NCBI RefSeq assembly: GCF_004010195.1
Contig: NC_057719.1
Coordinates: 33,030,563 to 33,094,562, forward strand
Source: Chiloscyllium plagiosum
Lineage: Eukaryota
DNA length: 64,000 nucleotides
Direction: 5' to 3'
Shown: positions 5,454-64,000 of the stretch, in pieces
Position numbering within the stretch: the stretch's first letter is position 1
Layout: the number at the start of each line of letters is the position of its first letter
Notes under the pieces: generated by a model
Seen by the model: only the letters and a program-made list of their open reading frames with translations
Databases searched by the model: none
What the model was told of the DNA's origin: nothing
Position numbers and translations under genes: made by a program

Positions 5454-8048
5454 ATGATGTGGAGGAGCTGGTGTTGGACTGGGGTGGTCAAAGTTAAAAA
5501 TCACACAACACCAGGTTATCATCCAACAGGTTTATTTGGAAGCACTAGCTTTCAAAGTGCTGCTCCTTTTTCAGGTGGTTGTGGAGCAGAATCATAGGAC
5601 ACAGACTTTACTGCCCCAGGATTGCAATGTCATGGAATGAAATATTAAACAAATTTAGCTTAAGTCTTTCATCTTTTAGAATGACCATGTTAGCTTTGAT
5701 TCCTTTATATGTAAATCCCAGAACCTTTTTAAAGTTACATTATCAAGATAGCTTTTGACAATGGGTGTCACCTTAGCTCAGATAATGCATTGGAGGTGTG
5801 AAGTTAAAGTCTGTCTGTGTTCCAGTGTTAGGTCAGATTGATTCTATTTCTAAAGTGGGAGTTACAGAATCTTACATGGATTTATGCAGTTTTGAGTAAA
5901 AACAAAATGTAATTATGCAAGTACAAATTCACCCCACAAACTGATAGGTGTGTGTGTGTGAGTGTGTACATGTGGGTGTGTGTGGGGTGGGTGTGAGTGT
6001 CTGTGAGAGATTGTGTGTCTGTGTATGAGTGTAAAGGGGTATAAGTCTGTGAGAGAGTGCGTGTGTGTGAGCATACGAGAGAGAGCTTGTGTCTGAGAGA
6101 GGGTCTCTGTGTTGTGTGTGTGTGTGTGCGCATGTATAGTGTAGTGGGGTCACCTGTAATGTGACACGAACCCAAGGTCCAGTTGCGGCCATCCCCATGG
6201 GTACTGAACTTGGCTATCAGCCTCTGCTTGACCACTTTATGTTGTTGCCTGCCCCAAAGTCCGCCTTGGAGGATGGTCACCCAAAGGTCCAATGCTGAAT
6301 ATCCTGGACCGCTGAAGTGTTCTCCGACTGGGAGGGACCACTCCTCTCTGTTGATTGTTGTGCAGTGTCTATTCATTTGTTGCCGTAGTCTCTGCTCGGG
6401 CTCACCAATGTATCATGCCTCAGGGCACCCTTGCCTGCAGCATATAAGATAGACATCATTGGCTGAGTCACATGAGTACCTGACACATACATGGTTGGTG
6501 GTATCCCCACGTGTAATTGTGGTATCTGAGTCAACACTCTGACAGGTCTTGCAGCGTCTGCCATGACAGGGTTGTATGGTGATGATCTGTTTAAGGTTTG
6601 ACAGTTGTTTAAAAGCAAGAGGTGGAGGCATGGGAAAGGTCTTGGCGAGGTGCTCATCCTCATCGATAATGTGTTGTAGGCCATGAAGAACATGGCGTAG
6701 TTTTTTGGCTCCTGGGAAGTACTGGACAACGAAGGGTACCTTATTGGTTGCAGCTAGTGACTGTCTCCTGAGGAGGTCATTACGCTTTCTTGCTGTGGCA
6801 TGTCAGAACTGGCGGTCGATGAGTTGAGCATTGTATCCCGTTCTTATGAGAGCATGTATGAGTGCTTCTAACTGTCCATCACTCCTCCTCATCTGAACAG
6901 ATCCTTTGTATGCATAGGGCTTGTCCGTAGTCAATGGATATTTTAATATTTTTCAGGGGGCAGCTAGAGAAGTGTAGCATGGGGAGGTTATCCATGGGTT
7001 TGTGGTAGAGTGAGGTGCTGAGGTGTCCATTCTTGATGGAGATGCATGTGTCCAAGAATGAGACAGATACTAAAGAGTAGTCCATGGTGAGTTTGATGGT
7101 GGGATGAAACTCGTTGATATCACTGTGTAGTTGTTTCAGTGACTCCTTGCCATGAGGAAGAAAATATCATCAATGTACCTGGTGTATAGTGTTGGTTGGC
7201 GGTCCTGTGCATTGACTGCCAGTTCCGACATGTCACAGCAAAAAACCGTAATGACCTCCACAGGAGACAGACACGAGCTGCAACTCATTGTTCAGTACTT
7301 CCTGGGAGCCGAAAAACTACGCCATGTTCTTCTTGGCCGCCAACACATTATCGATGAGGATGAGCACCTTGCCAAAACCTACCCAACACCTCCCCTTCTC
7401 ACCTTTAAACAACCGTCAAACCTGAAACAGATCATTGTTCACAGCAAACCGCCTGGCCTTCAGGCCAACACCATACAACCCTGTCGCGGCAGATGCTGCA
7501 AGACAGATACCACCATTACACGTGGGGACACCACCCACCATGTATGCAGCAGGTACTCATGTGACTCAGCCAATGTTGTCTATCTCATATGCTGAAGGCA
7601 AGGATGTCCTGAGGCATGTTACATTGGTGAGACCAAGCAGAAGCTATGGCAACGGATGAATGGAAACTGCACAACAATCACCAGACAGGATTTATACCCC
7701 TTTACACTCTCACAGACACACACTCTCTCACAGACACTAACACCACCACGTCCCTCCATCCCCACCCCCACCTCACATACACCCACATGCACACACTCAT
7801 TTGGTCTCCTCTGCACACACCCACACCAACACATATACATATAAGTTTGTGGGGTGAATTTGTATTTGCAGAATTACATTTTGTTTTACTCAAAAACTGC
7901 ATAAATCTTTGTAAGATTCTATTACTCCCATTTTAGAAATAAAATCAGTGTGACCTAACATTGACACATGGACAGACTTTAACTTCACACCTTAAATGCA
8001 TTATCTGAGCAGACGTGACACCCATTGTCAAAATCTATCTTGGAAATT

Positions 8049-8186
8049 AAAAATCACACAACACCAGGTTATAGTCCAACAGGTTTAATTGGAACCACTA
8101 GCTTCATCAGTTGGTTGGACTATAACCTGGTGTTGTGTGATTTTTAATTTTGTACACTCCAGTCCAACACCGGCACCTCCCAATTA
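8049..8186. mobile_element. Mini fold-back PLE of the same family nested in the plus arm
   Basis: Inverted arms aaaatcacacaacaccaggttatagtccaac / gttggactataacctggtgttgtgtgattttt; TSD TATCTTGGAAATT 8036-8048 / TATCTTGAAAATT 8187-8199. Confidence 0.85.
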
Positions 8187-8360
8187 TATCTTGAAAATTT
8201 AACTTTAAAAACTTGTGGGATTTACATATGAAGGAACCGAAGCTAACATGGTCATTCCAAAAGATAAAGACATAAGCTTAATTTGTTTAATATTACATTC
8301 CATGACAATGCAACCCTGTTGCTATATAGTCTGTGTCTTTTGATTCTGCTCCATAACTAC

Positions 8361-8389
8361 CTGATGAAGAAGCAGTCCTCCGAAAGCTA
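8361..8389 (+). ncRNA. Minimal type I hammerhead ribozyme motif (PLE terminus)
   Basis: CTGATGA-agaagcagtcctcc-GAAAGCTA; the inverted partner at about 5546-5574 has a mutated core (CTGAAAA). Confidence 0.7.
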
Positions 8390-11300
8390 GTGCTTCCAAA
8401 TAAACCTGTTGGACTATAAACAGGGGATGTGTGATTTTTAACTTTGTGGATTTGATGCCAGCAAATGTCAGCCCGCTATTTAAGAAGGAACTAAGAGGGA
8501 AAAATGCAAACCTGCTAGCCTTACATCAATAGTGGAGAAAGTGGTATAATCTCTTAGAAAGGATTGGATAAATAGAATGATAAAGATCTGATTGGCCATA
8601 GCATGGATTTCTGAATGGGAAAGAGTGTTTGCCAAACTTGGCACATCAAATAAGAGAAAAGATAATGGCATGGATTAATGTTGGCTAACAGACAGAAAAT
8701 AGAGAATAGATATAACTGGATCATTCTCATCTTGGCAGGTTGTGACTGACAGCTAGAACTCTGATTGGTTGAATCCACATTGCCCCACCCCTAGTATTTT
8801 GGCCCTGAGCCCCAGACTTTTATTGGATAAATATTCATGGATAAGAAAAGTTTGGAGGGATATGGGCCAGCGCAGGCATGTGAGACAAACTTTGTTTGGG
8901 ATTATGGTCAGCATGGACTAGTTAGACGAAAGGTCTATTTCTGTGCTGTATGACTCTGATCTATGACAAGCATTTTTGGAGCTATGGAACTTAGTGTGAC
9001 CCACTCCATGGATTATAGAGTCACTGACTCCTGAGCAAGAATATGCCAACCAGTGCTTGACCATGGCCAAACTCTGGACTGGAATCAAAGGCTGGCTTTC
9101 AGTGTCGTGATCCCATGACTGACAAATGCCTCTTTTGACTTCAGTGTAGACTACTCCCTGAATACCTTGAAACATGATAGGTTCTTGTTGCAAATGTAAT
9201 GTGTTTTCTGAATAAGATGTAGGCAGATGGGTCAGGTGTGAGATTGATGTAGTTCATGAGCATACAACAAGTTGTGCAACCCCTTCAATGAAGACTGCTG
9301 ACTAGCAAGGCAAGATTCTTGGTTGTCTGACCAGCCTTGTTGGGTGTCTTGAAAAACACTAAGTAGGTAAGTTCCCATGCTGAGATTTATCCCAGGATAC
9401 TGAAGAGAGGAGATTGTTGGAGCCTTGGCAGAAATCTTTGTTTCTGCTTCATCCACAGGCGAGATCCCAGAAGCCTGGAAAATAACCAATGCTGTGCCTT
9501 TGTTTAAGAAAGGAAACATGTATAATCTAGGAAATTATTGGCTGGTGAGCCTCACATCAGTTGTAGGAAAATTACTGGATAAGATTCTTCGGGAGAAGAT
9601 TTACTTGCATTGTAAAGTACTAGACTTATTTGGGACAGTCAGCATGGCTTCATCAGGAGAGGTGTTGTTTCACAATTTTCAATTATTGTTTTAAGCAACA
9701 GCCAAGTTTCTGGTATTGAGACTGGCTCGAATGAAATGAGGGGTACGTCGGGTTCCAAGGGATCAATTGTGTTAGGGGATTCTCTAGTCCGAGGTACAGA
9801 CAGACGTTTCTGTGGCCAGCAGCGAAAAAGCAGAATGGTGTGTTGTTTCCCTAGTGCCAGGATCAAGGCTGTCTCAGAGAGGGTGTAGAATTTTCTCAAG
9901 GGGGAGAGGGGCCAGCAAGAGGTCATTGTTTACATTGGAACCAACGACATAGGAAGGGAAAAGGTTGAGATTCCGAAAGGAGATTACAGAGAGTTAGGCA
10001 GAAATTTAAAAAGGAGGTCCTTGAACTGTAATATCCAGATTACTCCCAGTGCTACGAGCTAGTGAGGGCAGGAATAAGAGGATAGAGCAGATGAATGCAT
10101 GGCTGAGGAGCTGCTGTATGGGAGAAGGATTCACATTTTTTGATCTTTGGAATCTCTTTTGGGGTAGAAGTGACCTGTACAAGAAGGACGATTTGCCCCT
10201 ATATTGGAAGGGGACTAATATACTGGCAGGGAGATTTACTACAGCTGCTCAGGAGGATTTAAACTAGTAAGGTGGGGTAGTGGGACCCAGGGAGATAGTG
10301 AGGAAAGAGATCAATCTGAGACTGGTACAGTTGAGAACAGAAGCGAGTCAAACATTCAGGGCAGGCAAGGACAAGGTAGGACTAATAAATTAAACTGCAT
10401 TTATTTCAATACAAGGGGCCTAACAGGGAAGGCAGATGAACTCAGGGCATGGTTAGGAACATGGGACTGGGATATCATAGCAATTACAGAAACATGGCTT
10501 AGGGATGGGCAAGACTGGCAGCTTAATGTTCCGGGATACAAATGTTACAGGAAGGATAGAAAGGGAGGCAAGAGAGGAGGGGGAGTGGCATTTTTGATAC
10601 AGGATAGCATTACAGCTAGGCTGAGGGAGGATATTCCCAGAAAAACATCCAGGGAAGTTTTTGGGTAGAACTGAGAAATAAGAAAGGGATGATCACCTTA
10701 TTGGGATTGTATTATAGACCCCCTAACAGTCAGAGGGAAATTGAGAAACAAACTTGTAAGGAGATCTCAGCTATCTGTAAGAATAATAGGGTGGTTTTGG
10801 CAGGGGATTTTAACTTTCCAAACATGGACTGGGACTGCCATAGTGTTAAAGGTTTAGATGGAGAGGAATTTGATAAGTGTATACAAGAAAAAATTCTCAT
10901 TCAGTATATGGATGTACTACTACAGAAGGTGCAAAACTTGACCTACTCTTGGGAGATAAGGCAGGGCAGGTGACTGAGGTGTCACTGGGGGAGCACTTTG
11001 GGGCCAGCGACTGTAATACTATTAGATTTAAAATAGTGATGGAAAGTAATAGATCAGATCTAAAAGTTGAAGTTCTAAGTTGGAGAAAAGCCAATTTTGA
11101 TGGTATTAGGCAAGAACTTTCAAAAGCTGACTGGGGACAGATGTTGGCAGGTAAAGGGACAGCTGGAAAATGGGAAACTTTCAGAAATGAGATACTGGGA
11201 ATCCAGGGTGAATGAAAGGAAAGGCTAGTGGATTTAGTGAATGCTAGATGACTAAAGAAATTGAGGGTTTGGTGAAGAAAAAGAAGGAGGAATATGTAAG

Positions 11301-12463: not shown

Positions 12464-12491
12464 NNNNNNNNNNNNNNNNNNNNNNNNNNNN
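12464..12491. other. Assembly gap (28 N) inside a CR1 copy
   Basis: Run of n; the related copy at 23265-24645 has a few hundred bases at this position. Confidence 0.98.
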
Positions 12492-16727: not shown

Positions 16728-16903
16728 TTTACTTGCTGGATACTAAAGTCTTGGCAGCAAACTCTCTGCAAAATGATTCTGCCAGGTGAATCGGACAAAT
16801 GCAGGAAAACAAACATTTTTACCATGCTAAATTAAGACAACAGGGGAATAAAATACAACCTGTAATATAAATATATCGCATTAATGACATTTCAAATGAG
16901 TAC

Positions 16904-17173
16904 CTGTCACAAGGAAACTACACGTGCCAGCACCAGCCTCATTGATTATGCTGCAGTTGTAAACTCCATAGCTGTCTTTGGAAAGATTGTCCACTCTGAT
17001 CTGTGTATAATCCTGTGATTCAAATCGCCCTGTTAATAAAATCTTATTGCCCAGCTTCCATTCAAAGGTCAGCACACGAGTTGGGTAGGCTTTCAGTACT
17101 CTGCAGGTCATGGTAATGCTCCTGCCTTGACCCTGTCGAATCTCCAGAAATGTAGGCTCCACACTTGGTGGGT
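16904..17173 (-). CDS. MDGA2: Internal coding exon of MDGA2 (MAM domain-containing GPI anchor protein 2), sixth Ig-like domain; 270 bp, phase 1-1
   Basis: Translation [90 protein letters not shown] has the Ig C...W...YxC pattern and closely matches my recollection of vertebrate MDGA2 Ig6 ([30 protein letters not shown]...[23 protein letters not shown]). Minus-strand acceptor ttttgcag|AC at 17174/17173 and donor ACAG|gta at 16904/16903. Confidence 0.93.
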
Positions 17174-17675
17174 CTGCAAAATGGAAAGACATGCTTGAGT
17201 CAATGTGTTCATTTTGTGATCAGGTTTCTTAATGGCAAACAGAAAATTTGGACAAAATTTTTTTAAAATCAAAGCAGTATCTTGTGAAGTAATTGATGGA
17301 GATGATTATGAACAATTAGCAACACATCCAATTAAGACTTGTATAGGTAATGATACCCTTTAAATAATAAAACTGATTGAAAAGGAAGAAAACTTGCATT
17401 TTAGTAGCACCTTATCAGAATAGTTTACAAATATTTTAGAAACACTGGCCAGAATTTGTTGAAAAAAATGCCTTTAATCAATACACACTGTCATAAAACT
17501 GGATGTTGACCAGGACATAATGTTGAGGAAGAGATACCATATCAAGTTTTAGCAAATTAAGCTGGACACATAGAGGGAGTCACAACGGGAAAACATTTTT
17601 GTCACAATGATCATAATTCAGTTAGCTTTAAGGAAGTTACAGAACAGAACAAAACTGAACAGGAGTTAGAATTCT

Positions 17676-24645: not shown

Positions 24646-25082
24646 CTGTGTCTTAACAAAAACAATTTCAATTGTGTTTCAGGAAAGAGGCATGTCGTGC
24701 ATGATATTTAAACAAAACTTTGTGCTGAGTTTACAATACAGCATTGCTCTTTTCCGTTATATCTCATTTTCATATGTCAACCTGTCAGTAATAAGAATGG
24801 TTAAATCTTCCACAATGACTCACTTCCATGATCAAGAATATTTTTATAGAATGGAGTAGAATCATAGAATTGTGACGATGCTGTGGCTTTAAGAGGTTAC
24901 ATTGTCAGTTTTTTTTTAAGAGAGGTTGGAAGGCTGAAGAGAAAAGCAGTCTACCGACACCACTGGAGCAAACAGCTCGTGAGGCAAAAGTGAGGACTGT
25001 AGATGCTATAAATCAGAGTTTAGATTAGAGTGGTGCTGGAAAAACACAGAAGGTCAGACAGCATCCGAGGAGCAGGAAAATC

Positions 25083-25110
25083 GACGTTTCGGGCAAAAGC
25101 CCTTCATCAG
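25083..25110 (-). ncRNA. Minimal type I hammerhead ribozyme motif, intact core
   Basis: Minus strand CTGATGA-a-gggc-tttt-gccc-GAAACGTC: catalytic boxes, perfect helix II, palindromic ACGT in place of helix III, cleavage triplet GUC. Confidence 0.8.
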
Positions 25111-25180
25111 GAATGAGGCTGGGAGCCTCTGGGGTGGAGTGATTTTTATCTCTTCACCCTGGAGGCTCCCTGCCTCATTC

Positions 25181-25208
25181 CTGATGAAGGGCTTTTGCCC
25201 GAAATGTC
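25181..25208 (+). ncRNA. Minimal hammerhead motif (CpG-decayed copy)
   Basis: CTGATGA-agggcttttgccc-GAAATGTC. Confidence 0.7.
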
Positions 25209-25814
25209 AATTTTCCTGCTCCTTGGAGGCTGCCTGACCTGCTGTGATTTTCCAGCACCACTCTAATCGAAACAGCTCGTGAGGCCTTGGGTTTGTTTTA
25301 AAGGTGGAACAATGGAGGCAGCCTAGCTGGGCGTGGCCATCTCTCACAGACCAGGCTTTCTAGGCTTTTTGTAGATTTTAGATTTAACTTTAAGTAGTTG
25401 CTGTTGTGGATTTGAAAAGTAGAAGCTATCTTTTTCCTCTCTCGGTTACAGCTAGGACCTGTGGTTTCTATCTGCTGCAAGTTACCTGTGAGACAGATCT
25501 ATTTTGTTGAATTTTCCTTTTTGCTAAGGAGTGGTTTATGGGATCTAACTATATTGGAACAGTTAATGAGTAATAGTTACTATATCTATTATTCTGTTAA
25601 GTTTTCCAATAGAGTTGTTATTCTAAGTTCCTCTTTCTTTGATTGCATTTTAACTAGAATGTTTAAATAAATTATTTTGCTTCATGTTAGTAGTTTGACA
25701 AGTTGCATTGCATCTGGAACATGACATTTCACATTTGACTTTAACCTAAGTAATAGTTACGGTCCAGGCTACCTTCTTAAAATATTCTGATGGGGTCTTG
25801 TTTGGTCAATAACA

Positions 25815-27084: not shown

Positions 27085-27650
27085 GAAAGATTTGCATCTA
27101 TATAATGCCTTTCACTAACTTAAAACATCTCAAAGTACTTTACAACTAATTAAGTATTTTCAAAGTGTTGTCACTGCTGTAAGGTAGGGAATATGGCAGC
27201 CAAATTGCACATGGCTAGCTCCCGCAAGAGCAATGCGATAATGACCAAATAATTTGTTTTACTGATGTTGTTTAACGGATAAACATTAGCCACAATATCA
27301 ATGTTAACTCCCTTACAATAAAAACAAAAGTTGTTGAAGAAACTCAGCAGGTTTGGCAGCATCTGTGAAGGGAGAAACAGAGTTAACATTTCAAGTCCAA
27401 TATTTCCTCTTCGGAACCACAGATGCCACTAGACCTACAGAGTATCTCCAGCACTTTCTGTTTTTATTTCAGATCTCTGGCAACTGTAGTATTTGCTTTT
27501 ACTTGAAGGACAACTCCCTTGTTCTTTTTCAAAACATGTAACTTGTAGGTGCTTACACTCGCCAGACAGAGCAGACAAGTTTACAATTTAATTTCGCATC
27601 AAAAGACATCATCTCTGACAATGCACCAACCCCTCTGTACTGCACAGGAA
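27085..27650 (-). mobile_element. SacSINE1/DeuSINE-like ancient SINE, interrupted by a fold-back PLE end (about 27315-27511)
   Basis: Minus strand has the tail acagcagtgacaacactttgaaaatacttaattagttgtaaagtactttgagatg...tatatagatgcaaat, which resembles AmnSINE1/SacSINE1 as I recall them; AACTCCCTT is repeated at 27306-27314 and 27512-27520 around the insert. Confidence 0.65.
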
Positions 27651-28429
27651 AGATGAAGCTAATGAGAAATTGAAAATCACAAAATTATTACAACGCATGC
27701 CATTCAATATATCATGTCTGTGCCTGACCTCCGAATGAGCAATGAATCTTGTATCATTCTGTTGCCTTCTTCCCGTAACCCAGCACATGCTTTCTTTTGA
27801 GATAAAAATCCAATATCCTGTCGAATACCCCAATTGAATGTGACTCTATCAACTCTCAGGCAACTCATTCTCAACCTTAACAGTCTGATGAATGTAAAAG
27901 TTTCTCATGCTTTTTCCATTCCTTTTTATCGACTTATCTCAAGTCTGTGCCCTGTCATTCCCAAATCCTTCCACCAATTGGAACACTTATTCCTTATCTA
28001 CTTGTTAATACCTATTCGGATTGATAATATTGTTTTTAGTTGATAAGCTATTTAGTCCAACACCACATATTTATGAACTATGTTGTGGTTTGAAATAAAA
28101 GGATTGTAACAGTATGGATATAAAATTGGCTGGGAGATAGAGAGCTGAGAGTATGGTTAATGTATGTTTCAAACTGGAAGAAGGTTTGTATTGGAGTTCT
28201 CTGTGTAATTGGGATCCTCAATCTCCTGATTTACATTAATGAGATAGAGACCTCTGTATACACAGGAAAGTTTCAAAATTTGTGGATCATGCTAAATTTG
28301 GAAGCATTGTGAATCATCAGAAAGACACTAGAGAACTTCAAAATATAGACAACTTGGTGGAATGGGTGGAAAGGTGATAAATAAAGTTCAATGAAAAAAG
28401 ATTGTACAAAATGATGAATATTGGTAGGG

Positions 28430-30850
28430 AGATAAACCTCTATAAAATTCACATGAATTCCAAAGATTCCCCACCTCTAAGTGAAGGTACTCCTCCATAT
28501 CTCATTCGTAAATCACCTAACTCTTATTCAGAGACTATTACCCATTGGACGTCCGTTGAATTTTGACTTTCTATGCTTCAATGAAATCATTTGTCATTTT
28601 TCTAAACTTGAGATTAAAAAAAAGACCAGCCTCCTCATTGTTTTTCTCACAAGGCAATTCTGCCATCCCAGTGATCAGTCTGGCAAAACTTCATTGCACT
28701 CTCACTGGCAAAGAGGAATTAAAACGCTGCAAAATACTGCAGACATAGTCTTACCAAGTTTCTAAATAATTGCAGCAAAATTTCTTTACTCCATAACACA
28801 AATCTCTTTGTAATAAAGGCTGATGTACCACTTGCCTTCCTAATTGCTTGCCACAGCATGGTTAATGGCTCATAAGCAAGGAAATCAAGGTTCCTTTGTG
28901 TATCAATACTTTTCAATACCTCAGTGTTACATAACCTGTATTTCTACTATTTGACAAATTTCCTAGAGGAATTAAAACGCTGCAAAATACTGCAGACATA
29001 GTCTTACCAAGTTTCTAAATAATTGCAGCAAAATTTCTTTACTCCATAACACAATCTCTTTGTAATAAAGGCTGATGTACCACTTGCCTTCCTAATTGCT
29101 TGCCACAGCATGTTTAGTGGCTCATAAGCAAGGAAATCAAGGTTCCTTTGTGTATCAATACTTTTCAATACCTCACTGTTACATAACCTGTATTTCTACT
29201 ATTTGACAAATTTCCTGTTCATAAATCAATGTTGGATCTGCACAATCTGATCATTATTTTCTAAAAGTCCAGTTATCACTATATTAGGCTAGCAGATGTT
29301 TCATGTTTTCTCTCTTGCTCTTTCTATAATATTGGGATTAAAATTACTGGAGTAGATTTTGAAACTATAGACATTTGGAAAATGATCACCAATAAATCCA
29401 ATATCCCTGCAGCCACTTTCAACATTCTGGCATGTCAATCAGCTGGTACATAGGAACTATTACCTTTAAGTCGCATTAACTTCTCCAGTACTACTTTCCT
29501 TTCGCTAATACTAATTTCTTTTGGTTCCTTATTCTTGCTAGTCTCTTGGTTCCCTAATATTCCACTTTTGTTGTTCCATTTTCCTTCATGTCGACAAGCA
29601 TAGATGACGAGTTTACTTTTTCTGCCATTTCCTGATTCACTGTTATAAACTCTCTTGTCACTACAAATATTCAAATATTTCTTTGCTAATCTTTTCCTTT
29701 TTACACACCCATTAAAAATTTTACAATCTATTTTAAGCGTCTCATTAGTTTACTTTCATATTTTTTTTAAATCTCAGTTTCTTATTTATCTTTTCCTGAA
29801 TTCTAAATTGCCCTACCCCTCAAGCTTACTAACTTTTTTGTGAAACTTTGTAAGCTTCGAATACAATCTTCAGCTTTAGTGAGGATTGGATGAAGAGCCA
29901 TTGGACCTGAAACATTAACTCTGCTTTCTGCTTTCTGTCCACAGATACCCTGCTGAATTTCTCCAGCAATTTTTGTTTTTATTGGCAGTTGCTCGTTTAT
30001 AATTGTAAAATGACATTTTGAAAACTAACTTCTCCACTGGAAATACCATGGAATTTCTGATCATTCTTTCAAGAATTTTTTTTTTCAAATTATAATTAAA
30101 ATTGTTTTAGCCATTGTGCTATGAATACAAATCATATTATTGCTTGTTTCAGTGTTGAGTAATTTGCATATTGTTCAAATTTGTACTGATTTGGAATTGA
30201 TCATTGAAGGTGAGTAATGATTACTTACTTTTTCTACTCAAAGGAATATTAATTTGTTGCAAACCACGTATTTACTATTTAAATGCTAGCCATTGCCTGT
30301 CGACCATCTTATCTTTCAAAGCAGTTTTGTGGTCTACTACAGCTAACCTGTCCCCCTCCTGCCTTCATGGTTTTCTTTGTTCAGATTTAAGACCTTGGTC
30401 TCAGGTTCAACTACATGTTCAAACTTGATGTACCATTCTATCATATCATGGTCACTCTTCCCAAGACACTCCTTTACATTTAGATTATTAATTAGCCCAT
30501 TCTCATGGCAAATATGGATCTCAAGACAGTCACTTTCTATTTGGTTCCTTAACATACTTTCCTAGAAAACCATCTTGTTTACATACCAGGAATTCATTCT
30601 CCATAGCATGTCCTAATTTAGGCCATGCCCAACAATTCCATGACTATTTCGGACCAATAAATAACTATTGCCAATGTTTTCTGTCTTTTACTCTTCCTTA
30701 GCAGCACCCAAACTGATTCTACATCTTATCTGTCTTATTAATCTATTGCTCTAATCCTTCATTAACAGCAATACAGAACTCCATTTTTCTTTTTGTCTAT
30801 CCTTCTGAAACGATTAATATCCTTAAACATTCAGTTCCCAGCCTTGGTCA
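28430..30850 (-). mobile_element. Old fragmented CR1 ORF2
   Basis: QAIRKASGTSAFITK, VVLEKLMRLKGNSS and LGKSDHDMIEWYIKFE motifs; a PLE end fragment lies at about 29885-29982. Confidence 0.7.
28712..29216 (+). repeat. Tandem duplication, unit about 253 bp (28712-28964 and 28965-29216)
   Basis: agaggaattaaaacgctgc...ttgacaaatttcct occurs twice head-to-tail with a few substitutions and a 1-bp indel. Confidence 0.95.
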
Positions 30851-39489: not shown

Positions 39490-40815
39490 ATGTTGGTTTG
39501 TTTGCTGAGCTGGAAGGTTAGTTTTCAGATGTTTCATCACCATTCTAAGTAACATCATCAGTCAGCCTCCGATGAAGTACTGGTGTTATGTCCTACTTTC
39601 TATTTATGTGTTTAGGTTTCCTTGTGTTGGTAATGACATTTCCTGTGTTGGTTATGTCATTCCTTGTGCTGGTGATGTCATTTCCTGTTCTTTTCCTCAG
39701 AGGGTGGTAGATGAGGTCCAAATTGATGTGTTTGTTGATAGAGTTCCAGTTGGAATGCTATGCTTCTAGGAATTCTTGTGCATGTCTTTGTTTGACTTGT
39801 TCTAGGATGGATGTGTTGTCCCAGGCAAAGTGGTGTCCTTCCTCATCTGTATGTAAGGATTCTTATGAATACATGAGTGGATCATGTCATTTTGTGGCTA
39901 GTTGATGTTCATGTATCCCGGTGGCTAGTTTGTTTTGCCTGTTTGTCCAATGTAGTGTTTGTTACAGTTCTTGCAAGGTATTTTCTATGTGACATTTGTT
40001 TCACTTGTTGTCTGTATAGGGTCTTTCAAGTTCATTAGCTCCTGTTTTGGCGTGTTGGGTTTGTGGGCTACTATGGTGACAAGAGGTCTGAGTAGTCTGG
40101 CAGTCATTTCTGAGGTGTCTTTGATGTAGGGGAGAGTGGCTAGGGTTTCTGGGTGCATTTTGTATGCTTGTTTAGGCTTGTTGCTGAGAAATTGATGGAC
40201 TGTGTTCAGTGGATACATGTTCTTTATGAATAACTGTATCGGTGATTTTTCTCTGCTCTTTGTAGTTCCTCTGTGCTACACTGTGTGGAGGCTCATTGAA
40301 ATAATGTTCTAATGTAGCTTTGTTTGTGGGTGTTGAGATGATTGCTTCTGTAGTTCAGTATTTGGTCAGTATGTGTTGGTTTCCTGGTTTGAAGTTCCCC
40401 ATTGACTGTTCGCTCTACTGTGACATCGAGGAATGGCAGTTTGTTGTTGCTTTCCTCCTCTTTTGTGAACTTTATGCCAATAAGGATATTATTGATGGTC
40501 TTGAAGGTTTCCTCTAACTTGTATTATTTAGTGATGACAAAGGTGTTATCCACGTTGTGGACCCAAAGTTTGGGTTGGATGGTCGGCAGAGCTGTTTGCT
40601 CAAGCTCTGCATAGACTGCAGCAAATGATATCGCCAACCCAAGGAAACCTAAACACACAAATAGAAAGTGGGACATAACACCACTGTTTCACTGGAGGCT
40701 CACTGATGATGTTAACTAATATAGTGATGAAACGTCTAAAACTGAACCTTCCAGCTCAGCGAGCAAAGCTACATCCAGAATCTCAATCTGAACTGCAAAT
40801 ATTCTCAAAACTCAG
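39490..40815. mobile_element. Poseidon/Penelope-type PLE (coding on the minus strand) with an inverted terminal repeat at about 40635-40815 and two hammerhead motifs
   Basis: ATLPYIKDTSEMTARLLRPL..VAHKP, KIPCKNCNKHYIGQTG (GIY-YIG) and degenerate WVxxVDxTFVI; about 39490-39630 is the reverse complement of about 40635-40775. Cores CTGATGA...GAAACGTC 40703-40736 (+) and CTGATGA...GAAACATC 39561-39528 (-). Confidence 0.88.
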
Positions 40816-42614: not shown

Positions 42615-43672
42615 AAATTAGGTGGTATAGTGGACAGTGAAGAAGTTTAGAGCAGAAAATATGTTGCTGGAAAAACGCAGCAGGTCAGGCAGCATCCAAG
42701 GAGCAGGAGAATTCTGATCTGCTGCGCTTTTCCAGCAACACATTTTCAGCTCTGATCTCCAGCATCTGCAGTCCTCACTTTCTCCCAGTGAAGAAGCTTA
42801 TCTAAGATTACAAAGGGATCTTGATCAACTGGATCAATGGGTTGAGGAGTGGCAGATGGAATCTAATTTGGATAAATGCAATGAATTGCATTTTGATAAA
42901 ACAAACAAGAGGCAGGACTTATACAACTAATGTCAGGCCTCTGGGAGTGTTGTAGAACAGAAAGACATAGGGGTTCAGGTACATAATTCTTTAAAATTTG
43001 CATCACAGGTAGGTCGAGTAGTTAAGAAGGTGTTAAGCATGCTTGCCTTTATTGCTCAGACCTTTGAGTATAGGCGCTGGGAAGTCACGTTGAGATTATA
43101 CAGGACATTGGTGAGGCCACTTCTGAGGTGCTATGTGCAGTTCTGGTCGCCCTTTATAGGAAGGATATTATGAAACTGGAAGACGTCCAGAAATGATTTA
43201 CCAGGTTGTTGCAGGAATGGAAGGCTTGAGTTAATCAGATAGGCGGGATAGACTGGGACCTTTTTCACTGGAGGGTAGGAGGTTCAGGGTGACCTTATAG
43301 AGGTTAATTAAATAATGAGGGGCATGTATAAGGTCAGTAGCAAAGATATTTTCCCTAGGGTGGGGGAGTTCAAAACTAGGGCCATATTTTTAAGGTGAGA
43401 GGAGAAAGATTTAAAAAGGACATGAGGGGTAACTTTTACACAGGGAGTGATTAGTCTGTGGAATGAACTGCCAGAGGGAGTAGTGGATCCACGTACAAGT
43501 TATGACGTTTATAAGACATTTGGACAGGTACATGAATAGGAAAGGTTTACGGGGACATGGGCCAAATGCAGGCAGGTGGGATTAGTTTAGTTTGGGAACA
43601 TGGTCAACATGGACAACTTGGTCCAAAGGGTCTGTTTCCATGCTGTACGACTCTATGGCTCTATGACTCTAT
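42615..43672 (+). mobile_element. CR1 3' portion
   Basis: KLGGIVDSEE...QWVEEWQME...; tail ctctatggctctatgactctatga. Confidence 0.88.
42650..42785. mobile_element. Mini fold-back PLE end with 15-bp TSD inside a CR1
   Basis: CAGTGAAGAAGTTTA 42635-42649 / CAGTGAAGAAGCTTA 42786-42800; arms gagcagaaaatatgttgctggaaaaacgcagcaggtcag / ctgatctgctgcgcttttccagcaacacattttcagctc. Confidence 0.88.
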
Positions 43673-55546: not shown

Positions 55547-56863
55547 TCAATGAACAAATCTAATTCCTGCTTTTGTGAATAAAATGCCGTTTTTAAAAAA
55601 TGTTAAATTTATTTAAAGCCTTAATTATTGAAATCACTAGTGCTTAAAAGGGGAGAAACTCTTAAAAATTAAAAAAGAAAACATTTAAGGGTGTGGAAAA
55701 TTTATGAATGTACAACAGAATCAGAATTATGATTTTATCCAAGTGTTTTCTGATATATGTGCAAAATATTGGAAATGATAATGACAAAAGCTGATGTGAA
55801 ATGTCTGTCAGAAACATAACAATGGTAAGACAAGTGAGAAAAACAGAAAGGCATGTCTGCACAGACATTATGAATTTAAAGTTATTATGGACAGACTGTT
55901 CATTACACTAATAGATTAGCATAACAACAAATGAATTAATCAATACTATTTTAAAAAATGGTTTGTGCTAATTCATCAAAATACAGGATGACTCCAAATT
56001 TCCAAAGGCATTAGAATGAATATCGAGGGATTTTCACTCAAGTCAGGAGCACGAACGTCAAGAAAATTCCTGACTCCACAAACCCAACCAGGGAGAAAAT
56101 GGTTGGAACATCTATCAAATGTTCTTAAAAGAAGTAGATGCAAAAAAAAAGGGGCATTGGTCAAAATGTTCCAGAAAATACTGGATTCTGGGAGCATTCC
56201 AGCATCAATGAACAAATCTAATTCCTGCTTTTGTGAATAAAATGCCGTTTTTAAAAAATGTTAAATTTATTTAAAGCCTTAATTATTGAAATCACTAGTG
56301 CTTAAAAGGGGGGAAGCTCTTAAAAATTAAAAAAGAAAACATTTAAGGGTTGTGAAAAATTTGTGAATGTACAACAGAATCAGAATTATGAATTTATCCA
56401 AGTGTTTTCTGATATATGTGCAAAATATTGGAAATGATAATGACAAAAGCTGATGTGAAATGTCTGTCAGAAACATAACAATGGTAAGACAAGTGAGAAA
56501 AACAGAAAAGCATGTCTGCACAGACATTATGAATTTAAAGTTATTATGGACAGACTGTTAATTACACTAATAGATTAGCATAACAACAAATGAATTAATC
56601 AATACTATTTTAAAAAATCGTTTGTGCTAATTCATCAAAATACAGGATGACCCCAATTTTCCAAAGGCATTAGAATGAATATTGAGGGATTTTCACTCAA
56701 GTCAGGAGCACAAACGTCAAGAAAATTCCTGACTCCACAAACCCAACCAGGGAGAAAATGGTTGGAACATCTATCAAATGTTCTTAAAAGAAGTAGATGC
56801 AAAAAAAAGGGGGCATTGGTCAAAATGTTCCAGAAAATACTGGATTCTGGGAGCATTCCAGCA
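55547..56863 (+). repeat. Tandem duplication, unit about 658 bp (55547-56204 and 56205-56863)
   Basis: tcaatgaacaaatctaattcc...gggagcattccagca occurs twice head-to-tail with roughly a dozen or more differences by eye. Confidence 0.96.
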
Positions 56864-57000: not shown

Positions 57001-57568
57001 CATTAATGTGGTGTCCCTGTTCAAGAAGAGAGGGAGATAGAAAACAGGAAACTTTTGTCTTCCACTCTCCCAAAGGAGTCCCTGCACCTAGTCAAAGGAC
57101 ACCCTATATATCCAACTAGGCCCCAGACTTATCCTTTGCCTCTTCAAGAAACTTCAATACATTTAAACACATTGAAAAGTATAAAGGAGAATGGAAGAAT
57201 TAAGTGCCCTTTGGGATTATTAAGAGCAGACATGGATAAATTCATTGAAACTGTAATGTTCATTATAACTGTCAAAGGTTTCAATCTCCTGCCCTTTAAT
57301 TTAAAAAAAAGTCATGTCTTAGAATATCATTAATGCAAATTGTATCTACTGGAAGGCAGCTGTCTCTGTATAAAACACATGTCCAAAATATGACCTGCCT
57401 TCAATCTCCTCAATGTCATGGTAGATGCTGGATACAGGAGCACTATTTTGGCCATATCAGAAGTCTCCTCCCTGTGAAAATTCAGGTTTATATTTTATAC
57501 CCACTTTTTGTATTTGTGAAAATGTTTGTTGCTTCATTAATTTTCTGGTTAGAGACAGATAATGAGGA

Positions 57569-58238
57569 GAGTCTAGATTAGACCTGCACATCCCCCAATG
57601 TAATTGATTGTATCCATTGCTCCCAATGTGGTATCCTTTACATTGAGAAGGCTAGACGCCTTCTCACTGAGTTCGTTAGGGATCATCTCCAGGACACCAG
57701 CACCAATCAACCCAACTGCCCAACATTTCAACTCCCTCTCCCAATCTGCCAAGGACATGCAGGTCTTGGGCCTCCTCCACCGCCACTCCCTCACCACACG
57801 ATGCCTGGAGGAAGAAAGCCTCATCTTCTGCCTCGGAACCCTTCAGCCACAGGGCATCAATGTGGACTTCACCAGTTTCCTCATTTCCCCTCCCCCCACC
57901 TTACCCCAGCTCCAACCTTCCAGCTCAGCACCATCCTCATGACCTGTCCTACCTGCCAATCTTCCTTCCCACCTTTCCACTCCAACCTCCTCTCTGACCT
58001 ATTACCTTCATCCCCACCTCAATCCACCTATTGTACTCTTGGCTACCTTCTGCCCAGCCCCACCCCGCTCCCGTTTATCTCTCCACCCCGGAGGCTCCCT
58101 GCCTTCATTCCTGATGAGGGGCTTTTGCCCAAAATGTCGATTTTCCTGTTCGTCGGATGCTGCCTGACCTGCTGTGCTTTTCCAGCACCACTGTAATCTA
58201 GACTCTGATCTCCAGCATCTGCAGTCCTCACTTTTGCC
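57569..58238 (+). mobile_element. 5'-truncated PLE (GIY-YIG and terminus) with 14-bp TSD and a short inverted end at its 5' junction
   Basis: ACAGATAATGAGGA at 57555-57568 and 58239-58252; AQHFNSLSQSAKDMQVLGLL...LEEESLIFCLGTLQPQGINVDF; gagtctagatta at 57569 is the reverse complement of 58194-58205; degenerate hammerhead at 58111-58138. Confidence 0.9.
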
Positions 58239-60236
58239 ACAGATAATGAGGATACCATAGTTTCTATTTTTATTATAAAATAAACTTATGTTAGATCTTC
58301 AACATGGTAAAATTATGTTAAGTATATGTCTTGTATCAACACAGAAGCCTAGCATCAAGAGCCTGCAGAATGAAGACTGTAGTCACATATATTAAAAATG
58401 CAGCAAATAGTTTTTTTCAATCTGAGGCAATGTCTCAGCAAATTATCAAGACACACTCTTTTACCACTATAGGATGTGGTGTGTAGCTTCCATGCCAATT
58501 ACACAATTGGCAGGAGGGTAAAAAGCATGAGTGTGGAATTTTACAAATGCTGAATTGTAGATTGGAATCCCTGCAAATTATATGTGATGATTCAGCCTCT
58601 TTGCAGTTGATGAAGTGCCTGCCACCAAACAATGCCTGACAAGGCAATACGGAGAAATCAAAGTTTGCCTTCATCTGGTCCTGGTACTACTTTGCGAAAA
58701 AATCAGTAATCTAAAGAAGATTTGCACAGCTCATTCAGTCATTTCCACGCTGTAATGTAGAGGAATATGTGCAGAGCGAATAATGTTTCTGAGTTACAAT
58801 AGTCATTAACTACTGTTCAAAATGTTCTATTTAATGGAATCTATTGAACACCATACAAAATAGACTTTCAGCCACAATGCTAAAAGGTTTTATCATAAAA
58901 TTGGGAAGTAAAAATAACAGGGGTTGATTCAGGCAAGTCAGCTAACACAACGGAGTGTATCCTTCTGAGAACGAGCTCCAACTGGTATCTCAATGTCATG
59001 TTGCAACTTTCATTGCAACTGAGCCCGTGACATCTGATGCAGGAGCACCAGCACAGCATGAAAGAAAATATTTTATTTTCCCGCTCAGTCTTCATCACCA
59101 TCAAAAATACACAGAAGCATCACATATTAATTGCACAACCTACATCAATATGCCACAGAAAGACTGCAAATTCTATTGAGCGAAGGGAAACCCAAAGTAA
59201 AAATAGTTCTGGATGTTGATAACTGATGATCAGCTTGATATATTGCAAGCTGATTAATTAAACTGACAAAAACTTTATCAAGATCACATCAGTAGGCTTA
59301 GGACAATCTAAATTCATAGCAATCACTTGCATTACATTAACTGCTGTGCTTGCAGCTCATTGGTATATACATTTTAGATTAAGATTAAAACATTGGGTAT
59401 AAATTGCAAGACAAAAATGCAAGAAATCTCACAGCACTTCAAGCAAATTTGTGAAAAATATAATTTCCCTTTGTGTTTCTTCTGATGTGTTACTTTAAAA
59501 TTATCAAAGGGCACAAACTATCCACAGAAAAATGCTTAATTTGACAAATAGTTCCTGACAGTGTTTAGCAAACTGCTATATCATGAACACTGAATTCAAA
59601 TTTTCAAATTATCGACTGGGATTTGAACTCACGGTCTCTGTCTTATTAGTCCATACTTCATACAGCTGATAACATAAACAGAATACTACCGTGCCTAGAA
59701 GTTTGGGTATTTTGTTGCTGCCCAGGAAGGTGGGGGGCCTACAGGAATATGACGAGGTTGAGGAGCAGGAGGCAGTGGGGTGGGAGATCAGTCTAGAATG
59801 GACCTCAGGATAAAGGCATCAGTAAGAGTGGAGAGATGACAAGTGCAGAGGTGGCAGCAGAAAAGGAAGTAAGTGTAGGGACAGCAAACGAGGTAGGGAA
59901 ATGATTTAGAGAAAGAGACTAAGGCATCCATGCTAGCTCATTTTTAACCAAGGACACATTTTTCAACTTTCACTGTAGTGACCATCAGCAGAGGTAACCA
60001 CAACAAAGAAGATTTTAAAATATTTATAAAGTCTACATTGAATTAACATTTTCTGCATTTTAAACTGTATTAAAGTAATTCATTGCAGGTAGCCTTGTTT
60101 ATTAACTAATGTGCTATTTTTACATTTTACAGTAAAAACCAGATATAGCAATATCTGAACTAGTAAGGTTCTGAACTTGTAATCTAAAGGCCTGGAATAA
60201 GCATCTCAAGATGTTGAAATCTATATTCTCCTAGTA

Positions 60237-60319: not shown

Positions 60320-61777
60320 TATCTGCTTTTGATATGCTCTGTGTTGGCTTTCACATGCGTCTTTATAATGTTTGAATGTTACAAAGTAACTGGATCTGTT
60401 GCTCTCTTGGGATAGGGTTATTTTTCTTCTCTCAGAATCTGAGTATCTTTCTGGTTTTTGTTTCGGGCACAATTTGAATGGATTTCTCCAAAATTAAATC
60501 TTGCTTGTATATTAAATAAAACTGACAAAAACTCATAAATAATCTCCATTGTGACAGTTTTCCGGTTACCTTTTTGCGGAGAGAACTGAGCCCCGGTGTA
60601 GCGCAACTTATCTTGGTGCAGCTGAATGCTAGTGCAGAATGGACGAAAGGCTTGGAGCGGAGTGTAACAATTGTTGGACTGGGGCCTGGCCCAGGCGGTC
60701 AGACTATGTGCTGAGATGTTACTATTTGAAATTCTTTACTGGACTTTAATATCAATCCTTTTACTACGTTATAACTATTTTGTTTCTAACTTCTTTTTTA
60801 AACACTGCAAGGTACTTTTTCTTTTATTCCTCTTTTGTATCCAAGATTTGAATCTAAAATGGTGCCTTAAAGGCAGCCATTGTAAAAACCTTTCAATGTA
60901 CAGCTGTACTTCTATACTGGAGTCCATGTGACAATAAAGGATATTCTATTCTATCTATAGTGAGAATTAATGAAATTGAAATTCCTCTGTAAGGCAAAAT
61001 CTTCTGGTAAATTTGATTTGATTTATTATTGTCACATGTACCTAGGTACAGTGAAAAGTTTTGTTTTGTGGGCAGTACAGGCAGCTCATACCACACAAAG
61101 ATCACAGGGTGATTCTACAGAGTGAGAAATAAAATGTTACTCCTACAAAAAAGGTGCACAAAAAGCAAAATTAACATTTGGTTTGAAAATTGAAACACTC
61201 TTGACCATCTCCACCTCAGCACCATTGATGTTGCTCATTGAAGAATTATATATGGTCTCAGACTGAAGTAATTATCAAATATTTTAAAAACTTTATCACA
61301 AAACTTTATCTTAAATATATATTTATTTTTATATTCTGGCGTCACCTAAGGACCTGTCTAACTAAAAATGATAGAGGATAAGCCACTATAGAGTTTTAAG
61401 AAGAGACACTTGTCTTACATAACAAGGTGCAGTTAATTTCATAAAGCTATAGGTAGAATTAACATCAACTAGTTATGCATTATACAATTATCAGGAGTTA
61501 AATATGTTATATATGTTTTATTCAAGACATAGTACAAAATGAACTGTTCCTCTACGAAACATAATCAGATCAGATGGTGTTCATTATAGCTTAGCACTAA
61601 TTCTCTCACATCCATTAACTTAAACAACAAAGAAGAAAGATAAATAGTAGGATATGTTGATAGGGTTAGAGAGGAATTATCTATTTCTGAACTGTGACTT
61701 CTACATATTTATATGCAGCCGTATAAGGTATACTTGTTTTATGATAAATTCCAAGATTTAACACTGAATTTAATTCC

Positions 61778-63214
61778 GTGGGTAAAAACAATGACTGCAG
61801 ATGCTAAAAACCAGAGTCTAGATTAGAGTAGTGCTGGAAAAGCACAGCAGTTCAGGCAGCATTCGAGGAGCAGTAAAATCGACATTTCGAGCAAAAGCCC
61901 TTCATCAGGAATACAGGTAGAGAGCTTGAAGGGTGCAGAGATAATTGAGAGGAGGGTGACCGTCGCGTTGTTGTGGTTTGGCGGTGGATGAGTCCAATGA
62001 CCTGCATATCCTCGGTGGAGTGGGAGGGGGAGTTGAAATGTTGAGCCACTGGGCGATTTGGTTGATTGGTGCGGGTGTCCCAGAGATGTTCCCTAAAGCG
62101 CTCTGCTAGGAGGAGTCCAGTCTCCCCAATGTAGAGGAGTCCGCATCGGGAGCAACGGATACAACAAATGATATTGGTGGATGTGCAGATAAAATTTTGA
62201 GGGATGTGGAAGGCTCCTTTAGGGCCTTGGATGGAGGTGAGGGAGGAGGTGTGGGCGCAGGCTTTGCAATTCCTGCAGTGGCAGGGGAAGGTGCCAGGAT
62301 GGGAGGGTGGGTTGTAGGGAGGCGTGGGCCTGACCAGGTAGTCATGGAGGGAACGGACTTTGCGGAAGGTGGAAAGGGGTGGGGAGGGAAATATATCCCT
62401 GGTGGTGGGGTCTGTTTGGAGGTGGCGGAAATGTCGGCGGATGATTTGGTTTATGCGAAGGTTGGTAGGGTGGAAGGTGAGCACCAGGGGCGTTCTGTCC
62501 TTATTACGGTGGGAGGGGTAGGATCTGAGGGCGGAGGTGCAGGATATGGACGAAATGCGTTGGAGGGCATTTTTAATCACGGGGGAAGGGTAATTGCGGT
62601 CTCTAAAGAAGGAGGCCATCTGATGTGTTCTGTGGAGGAACTGGTCCTCCTGGGAGCAGATACAGCGGAGGCGGAGGAATTTGGAATATGGGATGGCATT
62701 TTTGCAGGAGGTAGGGTGGGAAGAGGTGTAATCCAGGTAGCTGTGGGAGTCGGTGGGTTTGTAAAAAATGTCAGTGTCAAGTCGGTCGTCATTAATGGAG
62801 ATGGAGAGGTCCAGGAAGGGGAGGGAAGTGTCAGAGATGGTCCAGGTAAATTTAAGGTCAGGGTGGAATGTGTTGGTGAAGTTGATGAATTGGTCAACCT
62901 CCTCGCGGGAGCGCGAGGTGCCACCAACGCAGTCATCAATGTAGCGGAGGAAGAGGTGGGGAGTGGTGCCTGTGTAATTACGGAAGATGGACTGTTCCAA
63001 TTATCTATTTTTCTATCAGTCAGGGCATCTGACTCAGGAAATATATTGCTAGCTGTAAGCTTTGAACATGAACGCGATTGAAGATGAATTAACAAGGTGT
63101 GCAAAGAATAAACTTAAATTGTTTTAGATCTTAAACACTGAGGCAAAATGAATATTCAAAAACTCAACTGATAATTGAACGTCGATTTTACTGCTCCTCA
63201 GACGCTGCCTGAAC
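61778..63214 (-). mobile_element. Young 5'-truncated PLE (RT and GIY-YIG, 382-codon frame 61852-63000) with captured DNA and a 16-bp TSD
   Basis: FLRYIDDCVG, LPFLDLSISI, IFYKPTDSHSYL and CIRCSRCGLLYIGETG...ERFREH; hammerhead motif at 61908-61881 (CTGATGA-agggcttttgctc-GAAATGTC); CACTGAATTTAATTCC at 61762-61777 and 63215-63230. Confidence 0.95.
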
Positions 63215-63916
63215 CACTGAATTTAATTCCAACAATTCTTCCCAGCTCATCCTTGGCTCCTCCAGTTCAGAAGTGAGGAAATATGGTCCCTCAAGGTAAT
63301 CCAGTTAATTCCACACAATTATATCTGGCTACTGTCAGAATTGCAGGTCAGATGTAGTTGAAAGCTTACATGATCCATGCTCAGCTTTTCCAAAACAAAA
63401 AACACTTTCATATTTTGCCCTTTTCTCTACCTTAAAATTAGCAGGAGACACACATAATCAAATAATTATTCATATAATCAATCATTTATCTCCTTTGATC
63501 TTGGTATTGAAGGGGGCAACATTGCTTATTATTCAATATATATTAATATCTTGCTTTTCTGTTCAGTCAAATCCACGTGGAGCAATCAGAGTGTTCCAAA
63601 TGCCTGAAGATGGTGTCATTTGGAGAAAACTTCTGTACTAAAACTTATGTCCCATTTTGTTTTTTTACTCCAGTTGTATTAAAGCATATTCCTTCAGTGT
63701 CTTTTTGTTTGCTTCTACCAAACTTCCAGTTTCTGCAGAGCATTGAGTTTTTGAATATTCATTTTGCCTCAGTGTTTAAGTTCTAAAACAATTGAAGTTT
63801 TTTCTTTGCGCACCTTGTTAATTCATCTTCGATCGCGTTCATGTTCAAAGCTTACAGCTAGCAATATATTTCCTGAGTCACATGCCCTGACTGATAGAAA
63901 AATAGATAATTGGAAC
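62994..63916. repeat. 174-bp inverted duplication: 62994-63167 is the reverse complement of 63743-63916
   Basis: gttccaattatctatttttctatcagtcaggg...ttcaaaaactcaa versus ttgagtttttgaa...ccctgactgatagaaaaatagataattggaac, with about 6 substitutions. Confidence 0.96.
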
Positions 63917-64000
63917 CAATTAAATTACCATTTTAGAACTATAACGAAGTTGAATGATCGCTAAAAGTGCAGTTATCTCTGCCCTGTTACTTTGCTTCTT

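Follow-up and report, generated by a model that had tools for sequence, protein, structure and literature searches.

How does a retroelement insertion come to hold, inside its own target-site duplications (TSDs), an inverted copy of DNA that lies about 0.5 kb outside them? This question is raised by a Penelope-like element (PLE) in the shark Chiloscyllium plagiosum, located in a 64-kb stretch of contig NC_057719.1. We refer to this entire stretch as the window, all coordinates are positions within it, and the sense strand of the element is the minus strand. Inside its TSDs the insertion carries, in order, a 5'-truncated PLE, an inverted 174-bp capture of nearby DNA, a 10-nt filler, and a 37-nt inverted stub of the pseudo-long terminal repeat (pLTR) of the element. 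The structure as a whole is real. The locus today is a dead element copy, a fossil that is either fixed or widely shared. Probably, the capture arose while the element was integrating, by one or the other polarity of strand synthesis.

Structure of the insertion

A perfect 16-bp direct repeat (61762-61777 and 63215-63230) encloses the insertion, as had been claimed in an earlier reading made from the letters of this DNA (hereafter the sequence-only reading). A search confirmed the claim, with two occurrences of the repeat in the 64-kb window and none elsewhere in it. The 174 bp at 62994-63167 are the reverse complement of 63743-63916, with 168/174 positions identical (96.6%), six mismatches, no gaps, and an E value of 3e-79. 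This agrees with the proposal that they are an inverted copy of non-PLE DNA about 510 bp past the right TSD, the precise start of the source being 513 bp away. No third copy of the segment was found when 61700-64000 was compared with the window by BLAST. Being unique local DNA of less than 250 bp (174 bp) that is duplicated inside TSDs, the segment has the characteristics of a locally templated junction of target-primed reverse transcription (TPRT).

The element body had been placed at 61778-62993. A reverse transcriptase (RT) and GIY-YIG nuclease body is indeed present, but its true end is 62999, and the nucleotides at 62994-62999 are common to the element and the capture. We recognize this 6-nt microhomology because the codons of homologues and a loose end of the element family both continue to 62999. 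In nine close homologues that extend past the joint (two further matches that start too near to it were left out), the codons over 62992-62997 specify E in 8/9 and Q in 7/9, with the preceding V in 6. The family loose end, seen among contigs from sequencing runs, keeps register to 62999. In the right flank (770 bp), the plus strand contains the shared hexamer a single time. At the other end of the insertion, the inverted piece of the element's own terminus, given previously as 35 bp, is present but measures 37 nt (63178-63214 versus 61850-61886, 33/37 identical).

The frame that is open from 63000 on the minus strand encodes element protein down to approximately 61960, for a total of 347 residues. 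A protein search with these residues returned 687 proteins at E<=1e-30. Among five homologues scanned with Pfam, RVT_1 and GIY-YIG domains are present in 4/4 full-length proteins, and the shorter fifth is without any match; the GIY-YIG match of the copy itself is weak (E 0.04-0.05, below the cut-off). Its translation carries YIDD and YIG motifs within one open reading frame (ORF), wherein the RT is followed by a C-terminal GIY-YIG nuclease, as in endonuclease-bearing (EN+) PLEs. The 16-bp TSD, the tail-less stub, and the presence of a tail at one end only (30-40 bp long in such elements) are likewise features of EN+ PLE insertions. A CxxC sequence immediately before LLYIG supplies two cysteines of a CCHH motif between the GIY and YIG positions, and a zinc-finger-like CX2-5CxxC linker separates RT and nuclease both in the translation of this copy and in the full-length homologues. 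Such CCHH cysteines and the Neptune CX2-5CxxC linker are given as defining features in PMC8557442, and by these motif definitions the translation and its homologues point to an element of the Neptune type.

Relative to the copy at 57583-58238, the element is without about 255 bp near 61957-61960, a deletion that was overlooked in the sequence-only reading. Within its pLTR, the pattern of CUGAUGA, stem II, and GAAA at 61881-61908 is what we take to be a minimal hammerhead-like motif, whose cleavage is putative. Its stem II is predicted to form in a computed fold. Minimal hammerheads do occur in PLEs (PMC6155905). A search of Rfam gave no matches at the gathering score in the window and six weak matches in 61700-64000, none of which is a hammerhead and none of which was accepted. 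The idea that the stub ends at the hammerhead cut site was rejected, as the stub extends 6 nt beyond the predicted cut.

Table 1. Features of the insertion, its surroundings, and related copies in the window.
Feature	Position	Strand	Basis or remark
Left target-site duplication, 16 bp	61762..61777		Identical to 63215-63230
Three bases between TSD and family-like tail end	61778..61780		Other tailed ends in the window end 3 bases earlier in alignment; either untemplated or subfamily-specific bases
3' pLTR with tail (primary TPRT end)	61781..61957	-	83-86% identity to ends of copies 24986-25269 and 58061-58226; very high depth in 4/4 runs
Hammerhead-like motif, minimal, decayed	61881..61908	-	CUGAUGA, stem II, GAAA; stem II predicted in fold
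Internal-deletion joint, ~255 bp lost (end of ORF and 3' untranslated region)	61957..61960	-	Alignment to copy 57583-58238; family loose end at 61958
5'-truncated body: C-terminal part of RT with YIDD, thumb, Cys-rich linker, GIY-YIG nuclease	61960..62999	-	Frame open for 347 codons
6-nt microhomology, element and capture	62994..62999		V-E-Q codons in homologues; same 6 bases at source end 63911-63916
Captured inverted copy of 63743-63916	62994..63167	-	168/174 identical; two-copy depth, separate contigs
Filler, 10 nt, probably locally templated	63168..63177		Inverted match to 61485-61494 or 8-nt match to 63905-63912
Inverted tail-less pLTR stub (presumed second-end cDNA)	63178..63214	+	33/37 to own 61850-61886; similar stubs in 3 other copies
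Right target-site duplication	63215..63230		Perfect repeat; contig of organism B joins TSD to stub and capture
Capture source, AT-rich (32% GC) non-repeat DNA	63743..63916	+	Starts 513 bp beyond right TSD
Candidate filler template, left flank	61485..61494	-	Sole other copy of the 10-mer in the window; may be chance
Frame with Ig-domain exon of MDGA-family gene	16884..17219	-	MDGA1 5oj2_A residues 515-607, E 6.7e-25; Pfam Ig
Further family copies, including TSDs	881-1003, 24970-25285, 42635-42799, 57555-58252

Independent support, copy number, and age

Twenty-three sequencing runs were found from three organisms, called A (the best holders), B, and C, and four of the runs (X3, X16, X5, and X10) were compared over 60741-63740. 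Organism A is the same species (X3, and X16 from another study), and organisms B (X5) and C (X10) are relatives. The source arm lies beyond the compared interval, so contigs of the source map onto the captured arm.

The joints of the insertion are present in contigs from these runs. An X16 contig that covers 62959-63078 with no differences spans the joint between element and capture by 35 and 79 letters. In organism B, a gap-free X5 contig covering 63112-63739 with 14 differences spans the capture, filler, stub, and TSD. Extended by its other 59 letters, this contig would arrive at 63798, the position that mirrors 63112, and organism B thus appears to have both arms. Over 63049-63159, runs X3 and X16 both yield a pair of distinct contigs, one with 0 differences and the other with 5, which is the pattern that a capture and its source should give. 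From organism C (X10), one contig covers the source and right flank and continues 25 bases into the stub, and another enters the element from the left by 13 bases. Contigs through the left TSD reach 30, 30, 28, and 13 letters into the element, where the bar was 31 letters, and the filler is bridged by no organism A contig among those listed (X3, X16). Among the joints and pieces listed, neither an empty site nor a joint that skips the insertion was found in any of the four runs (0/4, three organisms). Organisms A, B, and C all appear to carry the insertion.

Read depth indicates that the captured DNA is not a repeat. For the bin at 63041-63140, depth is 24.9, 52, 10.6, and 71.8 in the four runs. 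Most bins of unique flank have approximately 10-48, and the element itself has 1e5-1e6. In organisms A and C, the depth corresponds to about two copies of the segment, and this locus accounts for both. On depth and on the BLAST comparison within the window, we reject the idea that it is a multicopy repeat or part of the family sequence. The two-copy depth and the position of the capture inside the TSDs bear out the earlier claim that the captured piece is local DNA.

The two arms differ at 6/174 positions (3.4%, confidence interval (CI) 1.3-7.4%). This is not different from the divergence of the flanks between A and B (30/1034, p 0.63) or between A and C (45/1138, p 1.0). Because organism B holds both the capture and the stub, and because arm divergence is similar to flank divergence, the capture predates at least the split of A and B. 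The absence of an empty site among 4/4 runs indicates that the insertion is old, organisms B and C being too closely related to A to show one. The capture itself is about the same age as the divergence of A from these insertion-bearing relatives.

Two observations concern the left flank. At 61557, organisms B and C carry 11 extra bases relative to the window and to both organism A runs, such that a loss in A is probable. Also, the DNA at 60841-61240 is a high-copy repeat, with a depth of 1e3-2e5 in 4/4 runs.

Origin of the stub and of the captured segment

Four further copies of the element's family are found in the window, all with TSDs of 13-16 bp (one TSD with a mismatch). Three of the four (24986-25269, 42649-42785, and 57569-58238) have at the 5' end a pLTR piece that is inverted and without a tail, and none of these three two-armed copies has captured host DNA at its arm joint. 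Their stubs end 32-36 nt before the tailed end, compared with 69 nt for the stub of the studied copy. The fourth, at 894-990, is a lone tail-less pLTR arm flanked by 13-bp TSDs. It lacks a partner arm and has some four additional bases on its inner side. An inverted, 5'-truncated pLTR with a one-sided tail and a TSD is the arrangement described for PLEs (PMC3846280, PMC8557442). Thus, the stub requires no special event, and the capture alone wants explaining. This bears on the proposal of one integration with at least two template switches. A single event does fit the position, locality, and age of the capture, but the inverted pLTR piece needs no first-strand switch, being the family norm and compatible with priming at the second nick.

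The TSDs, when read in the direction of the stub, resemble the pLTR RNA just past the stub end above controls. With three scoring schemes and two nulls, p is 0.0003-0.021 for all five copies and 0.002-0.018 for the other four, although n is small and one of the five copies is single-armed (all six settings are included in these ranges). This likeness hints that the second overhang primes on element RNA, and such priming on tail RNA may be the cause of the one-sided tail. A purified PLE protein from anole nicks and extends both strands in vitro and uses uncleaved RNA (PMC11167929), and the stub's run of 6 nt past the predicted hammerhead cut fits the use of uncleaved RNA. The stub is composed of pLTR sequence, not of the RT-coding RNA next to 62999, and so it is without the adjacency that is the mark of classic twin priming.

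Additional repeat structures in the window deserve mention. What appears to be a copy of a second PLE family occupies 39490-40774; its inverted ends measure 157 bp (83%), and it contains hammerhead-like motifs. At 5461-8446, a third, distant PLE family (24-29% protein identity to the studied element) is represented by a large inverted structure with two arms, in which a small fold-back piece (8044-8150) is nested. Among the short inverted pairs, those at 5461-8446 and 39490-40774 look like PLE arms, and another pair is located at 27316-29984. Head-to-tail duplications at 55547-56863 (659 bp, 97.9%) and 28712-29216 (253 bp, 98.4%) represent either true tandem duplication or an overlap of haplotypes that the assembly retained. 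At 12464-12491, 28 N in succession interrupt a repeat.

The direction of the host gene is relevant to the choice of template. The best PDB match for the minus-strand frame at 16884-17219 is MDGA1 (5oj2_A residues 515-607, E 6.7e-25), and it also matches Pfam Ig. An MDGA-family exon on the minus strand is therefore well founded, but the name MDGA2 used in the sequence-only reading is not, since MDGA1 and MDGA2 could not be distinguished. Motif scans of frames of >=25 and >=75 amino acids revealed no upstream MDGA exon between 17219 and 64000. Because the exon is on the minus strand and no upstream exon was seen as far as 64000, the insertion site is probably intronic, with gene and element running in the same direction. 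The captured copy had also been described as antisense to the host gene. Its orientation was given correctly, but orientation leaves the template undecided. A capture made by first-strand cDNA would have had the plus strand as its template, whereas one made by the second end after the stub calls for a template of minus-strand (host-gene sense) sequence, either the resected overhang or pre-mRNA.

We tentatively favor, at somewhat less than an even chance, a single integration event in which both nicks were extended, the second end copied the minus strand, and the two ends annealed at microhomology. As the TSD and tail imply, the nuclease would cut the strands 16 bp apart, and the plus-strand 3' end would prime cDNA synthesis from the tail, halting in the RT coding region at 62999. 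The minus-strand 3' end would prime on pLTR RNA to yield the 37-nt stub, as is the norm for the family. This second end would then gain the 10 filler bases and copy the minus strand of its own flank over 174 nt, proceeding away from the site. The template might be its own overhang, made single-stranded by 5' resection and folded back for synthesis by a host enzyme of the polymerase theta type, which we somewhat prefer. Alternatively, it might be the nascent pre-mRNA of the host gene, which has minus-strand sequence and would be reached by an RT jump. The copy would be released and would anneal to the end of the first-strand cDNA through the 6-nt microhomology, which is observed at the joint and whose use in this step we infer. 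Fill-in and ligation would preserve both TSDs.

Several findings are consistent with copying by the second end. The two arms meet precisely at the capture, inside perfect TSDs, and the microhomology is located at the joint between element and capture. Stubs are present in three of the four other family copies without captured host DNA, and organism B carries capture and stub together. At the right-hand end of a double-strand break, 5' resection leaves the minus strand exposed. We prefer this path to copying by the first strand because of this exposure and because published L1 cases have been assigned to the reciprocal end.

Other findings weigh against it. No microhomology is evident where the second end would prime on the source, and no bases are shared between the position before 63743 and the end of the filler, such that the self-annealing of a reciprocal fold-back is not visible; two L1 fold-back cases have 6 and 14 bp of homology (PMC11702581). 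The source starts 513 bp from the site, outside the 15 bp typical of L1 templated insertions in tumors (10.1101/2024.08.27.596794). The likeness of TSD and pLTR in the studied copy alone is not significant (p 0.20-0.48), and the four runs yielded no empty site among the joints listed. Moreover, the order of strand synthesis cannot be read from sequence alone.

The filler likewise fits poorly. It is an exact 10/10 inverted match to 61485-61494, its only other occurrence in the window (chance 0.4-0.5% in 1.77 kb of flank), and it also shares 8 nt with the source end at 63905-63912 (chance ~1.2%). The former match agrees with a template of minus sense that extends across both flanks, for example pre-mRNA, and the latter agrees with the first-strand path. 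Neither candidate fits a pure own-strand fold-back, as the left-flank match would require the minus strand of the other end or RNA, and the source-end match would require the plus strand. The two local candidates have similar weight, and the filler does not decide the path. A 9-nt match to the element's own 61940-61948 was set aside because the matching bases differ from those of other copies there.

The strongest rival, which we judge possible though rather unlikely, is the path of the sequence-only reading, a template switch by the first strand. In this scenario the cDNA end pairs through the microhomology with the plus strand at 63911-63916, copies 174 nt toward the site, and then joins the stub-bearing second end with the 10-nt filler, and the template is unwound or displaced DNA, a resection fragment, or antisense RNA. 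The sole clear microhomology does sit where this priming is required. However, the path needs a single-stranded plus strand 513-686 bp from the nick, which is the strand that resection removes, and six base pairs are weak for invasion of duplex DNA. A template in the form of an antisense transcript is only hypothetical. The filler is typical of a closing end-joining step and, given its 8-nt match (p ~0.012), may be viewed as pieced together from the start of the capture itself, as in synthesis-dependent end joining, but that reading demands a slip and the loss of one base. Precedents are available in other elements, as switching of the growing cDNA in the manner of synthesis-dependent strand annealing is the model cited for L1 templated insertions (10.1101/2024.08.27.596794), and the extra 5' nucleotides of ZfL2 are largely flank-derived (PMC4245944).

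The remaining explanations place the capture outside the integration event or deny it altogether. It is improbable that a normal two-armed copy was later broken near its arm joint and mended with nearby templated DNA that replaced part of the element. The separate internal deletion makes later damage conceivable, and microhomology and filler are compatible with end joining at any time. The element's own end and the stub differ at 4/37 positions (11%, CI 3-25%), which is above the 3.4% (CI 1.3-7.4%) of the capture arms, but the intervals overlap and some of the stub differences are at CpG sites. Furthermore, organism B already has the capture, which coincides exactly with the arm joint, a small site for a later break to hit within 1.4 kb of insertion. 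With its frame still uninterrupted over 347 codons, the element does not greatly predate the capture. A far more remote prospect, largely refuted by the data, is that the segment arrived in the element RNA by transduction from a donor copy or belongs to a repeat family. PLEs may carry host DNA between pLTRs (PMC3846280), but in organisms A and C the segment has a depth of about two copies, both at this locus, and the window holds no third copy. Least credible of all is an assembly artifact. Inverted repeats beside high-copy elements are prone to mis-assembly, yet the arms differ at six sites, both versions occur as separate contigs in 2/2 organism A runs, and the joints are spanned by X16 and X5 contigs.

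Relation to known junctions and significance

Copying by the second end, as we favor it here, has parallels among insertions of other elements. L1 insertions with an inverted duplication, an inversion, or templated nearby DNA have been assigned to the reciprocal end (PMC11702581). Like the shark insertion, they have TSDs and a 5' truncation, and genomic DNA from the vicinity separates the RT product from the reciprocal end. In one of them twin priming occurs together with a local inversion, and one includes pieces that originate several hundred bases away. In contrast, the shark insertion is a germ-line PLE that is old and common to several species, no self-annealing homology is visible at its priming point, and its stub comes from the pLTR rather than from RNA adjoining the truncation. 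L1 foldbacks of 52-220 bp have been described in 3 plus 1 cases (~0.3-0.4%), together with one co-insertion of pre-mRNA (PMC10191854). They resemble the shark capture in being of comparable size, inverted, and located at the 5' head, with nearby pre-mRNA as a possible template, but the foldbacks abut the target site, whereas here the source starts at a distance of 513 bp, and capture and TSD are separated by a pLTR stub. A set of 22 L1 templated insertions, for which sizes below 250 bp and templates no farther than 15 bp from the site are typical (10.1101/2024.08.27.596794), is similar in that a non-element template of <250 bp is duplicated, and differs in its distance from the source.

Zebrafish ZfL2 LINEs (long interspersed nuclear elements) carry locally templated bases at the 5' junction that help end joining, which fits the 10-nt filler, but these amount to several nucleotides only and belong to an L2-clade LINE (PMC4245944). 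PLEs themselves share with this locus the inverted tail-less stub, single tail, TSD, microhomology joints, internal deletions, and capture of host DNA (PMC3846280, PMC8557442). In Adineta PLEs, spacers of 0.9-1.5 kb precede the 3' pLTR, and the portion of that report available to us states no local inverted source for them (PMC3846280), whereas the source of the shark capture is visible 0.5 kb away. No locally templated inverted capture at a PLE arm joint was found in the titles and abstract openings of the searchable literature, a weak negative given that most subscription papers lie outside it. The locus is a Penelope example, from one dead copy, of the complex TPRT junctions known from L1 and ZfL2.

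How PLE insertion is completed after the first nick is stated to be an open question (PMC11167929). This step is cleanly recorded in a fossil that retains TSDs, both arms, a microhomology, and a local source that can still be seen. The mechanism has been narrowed, and the template strand is not readable from one copy. The side and orientation of captures relative to the direction of the host gene could separate DNA fold-back, pre-mRNA copying, and first-strand switching. The arm pair is predicted to form a long hairpin in the pre-mRNA, as any such inverted pair would.

A broader proposal, which we regard as speculative and on balance doubtful, is that, prior to the joining of the arms, Penelope RT active at the two nicks regularly switches from its RNA to nascent host RNA or to exposed flank DNA at a distance of 0.5-1.3 kb. 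If this were true, shark PLEs would continually generate short inverted duplications of local DNA, and hence intronic double-stranded RNA. Their arm joints would then preserve a record of the strand that had been exposed or transcribed in the germ line when the insertion took place.

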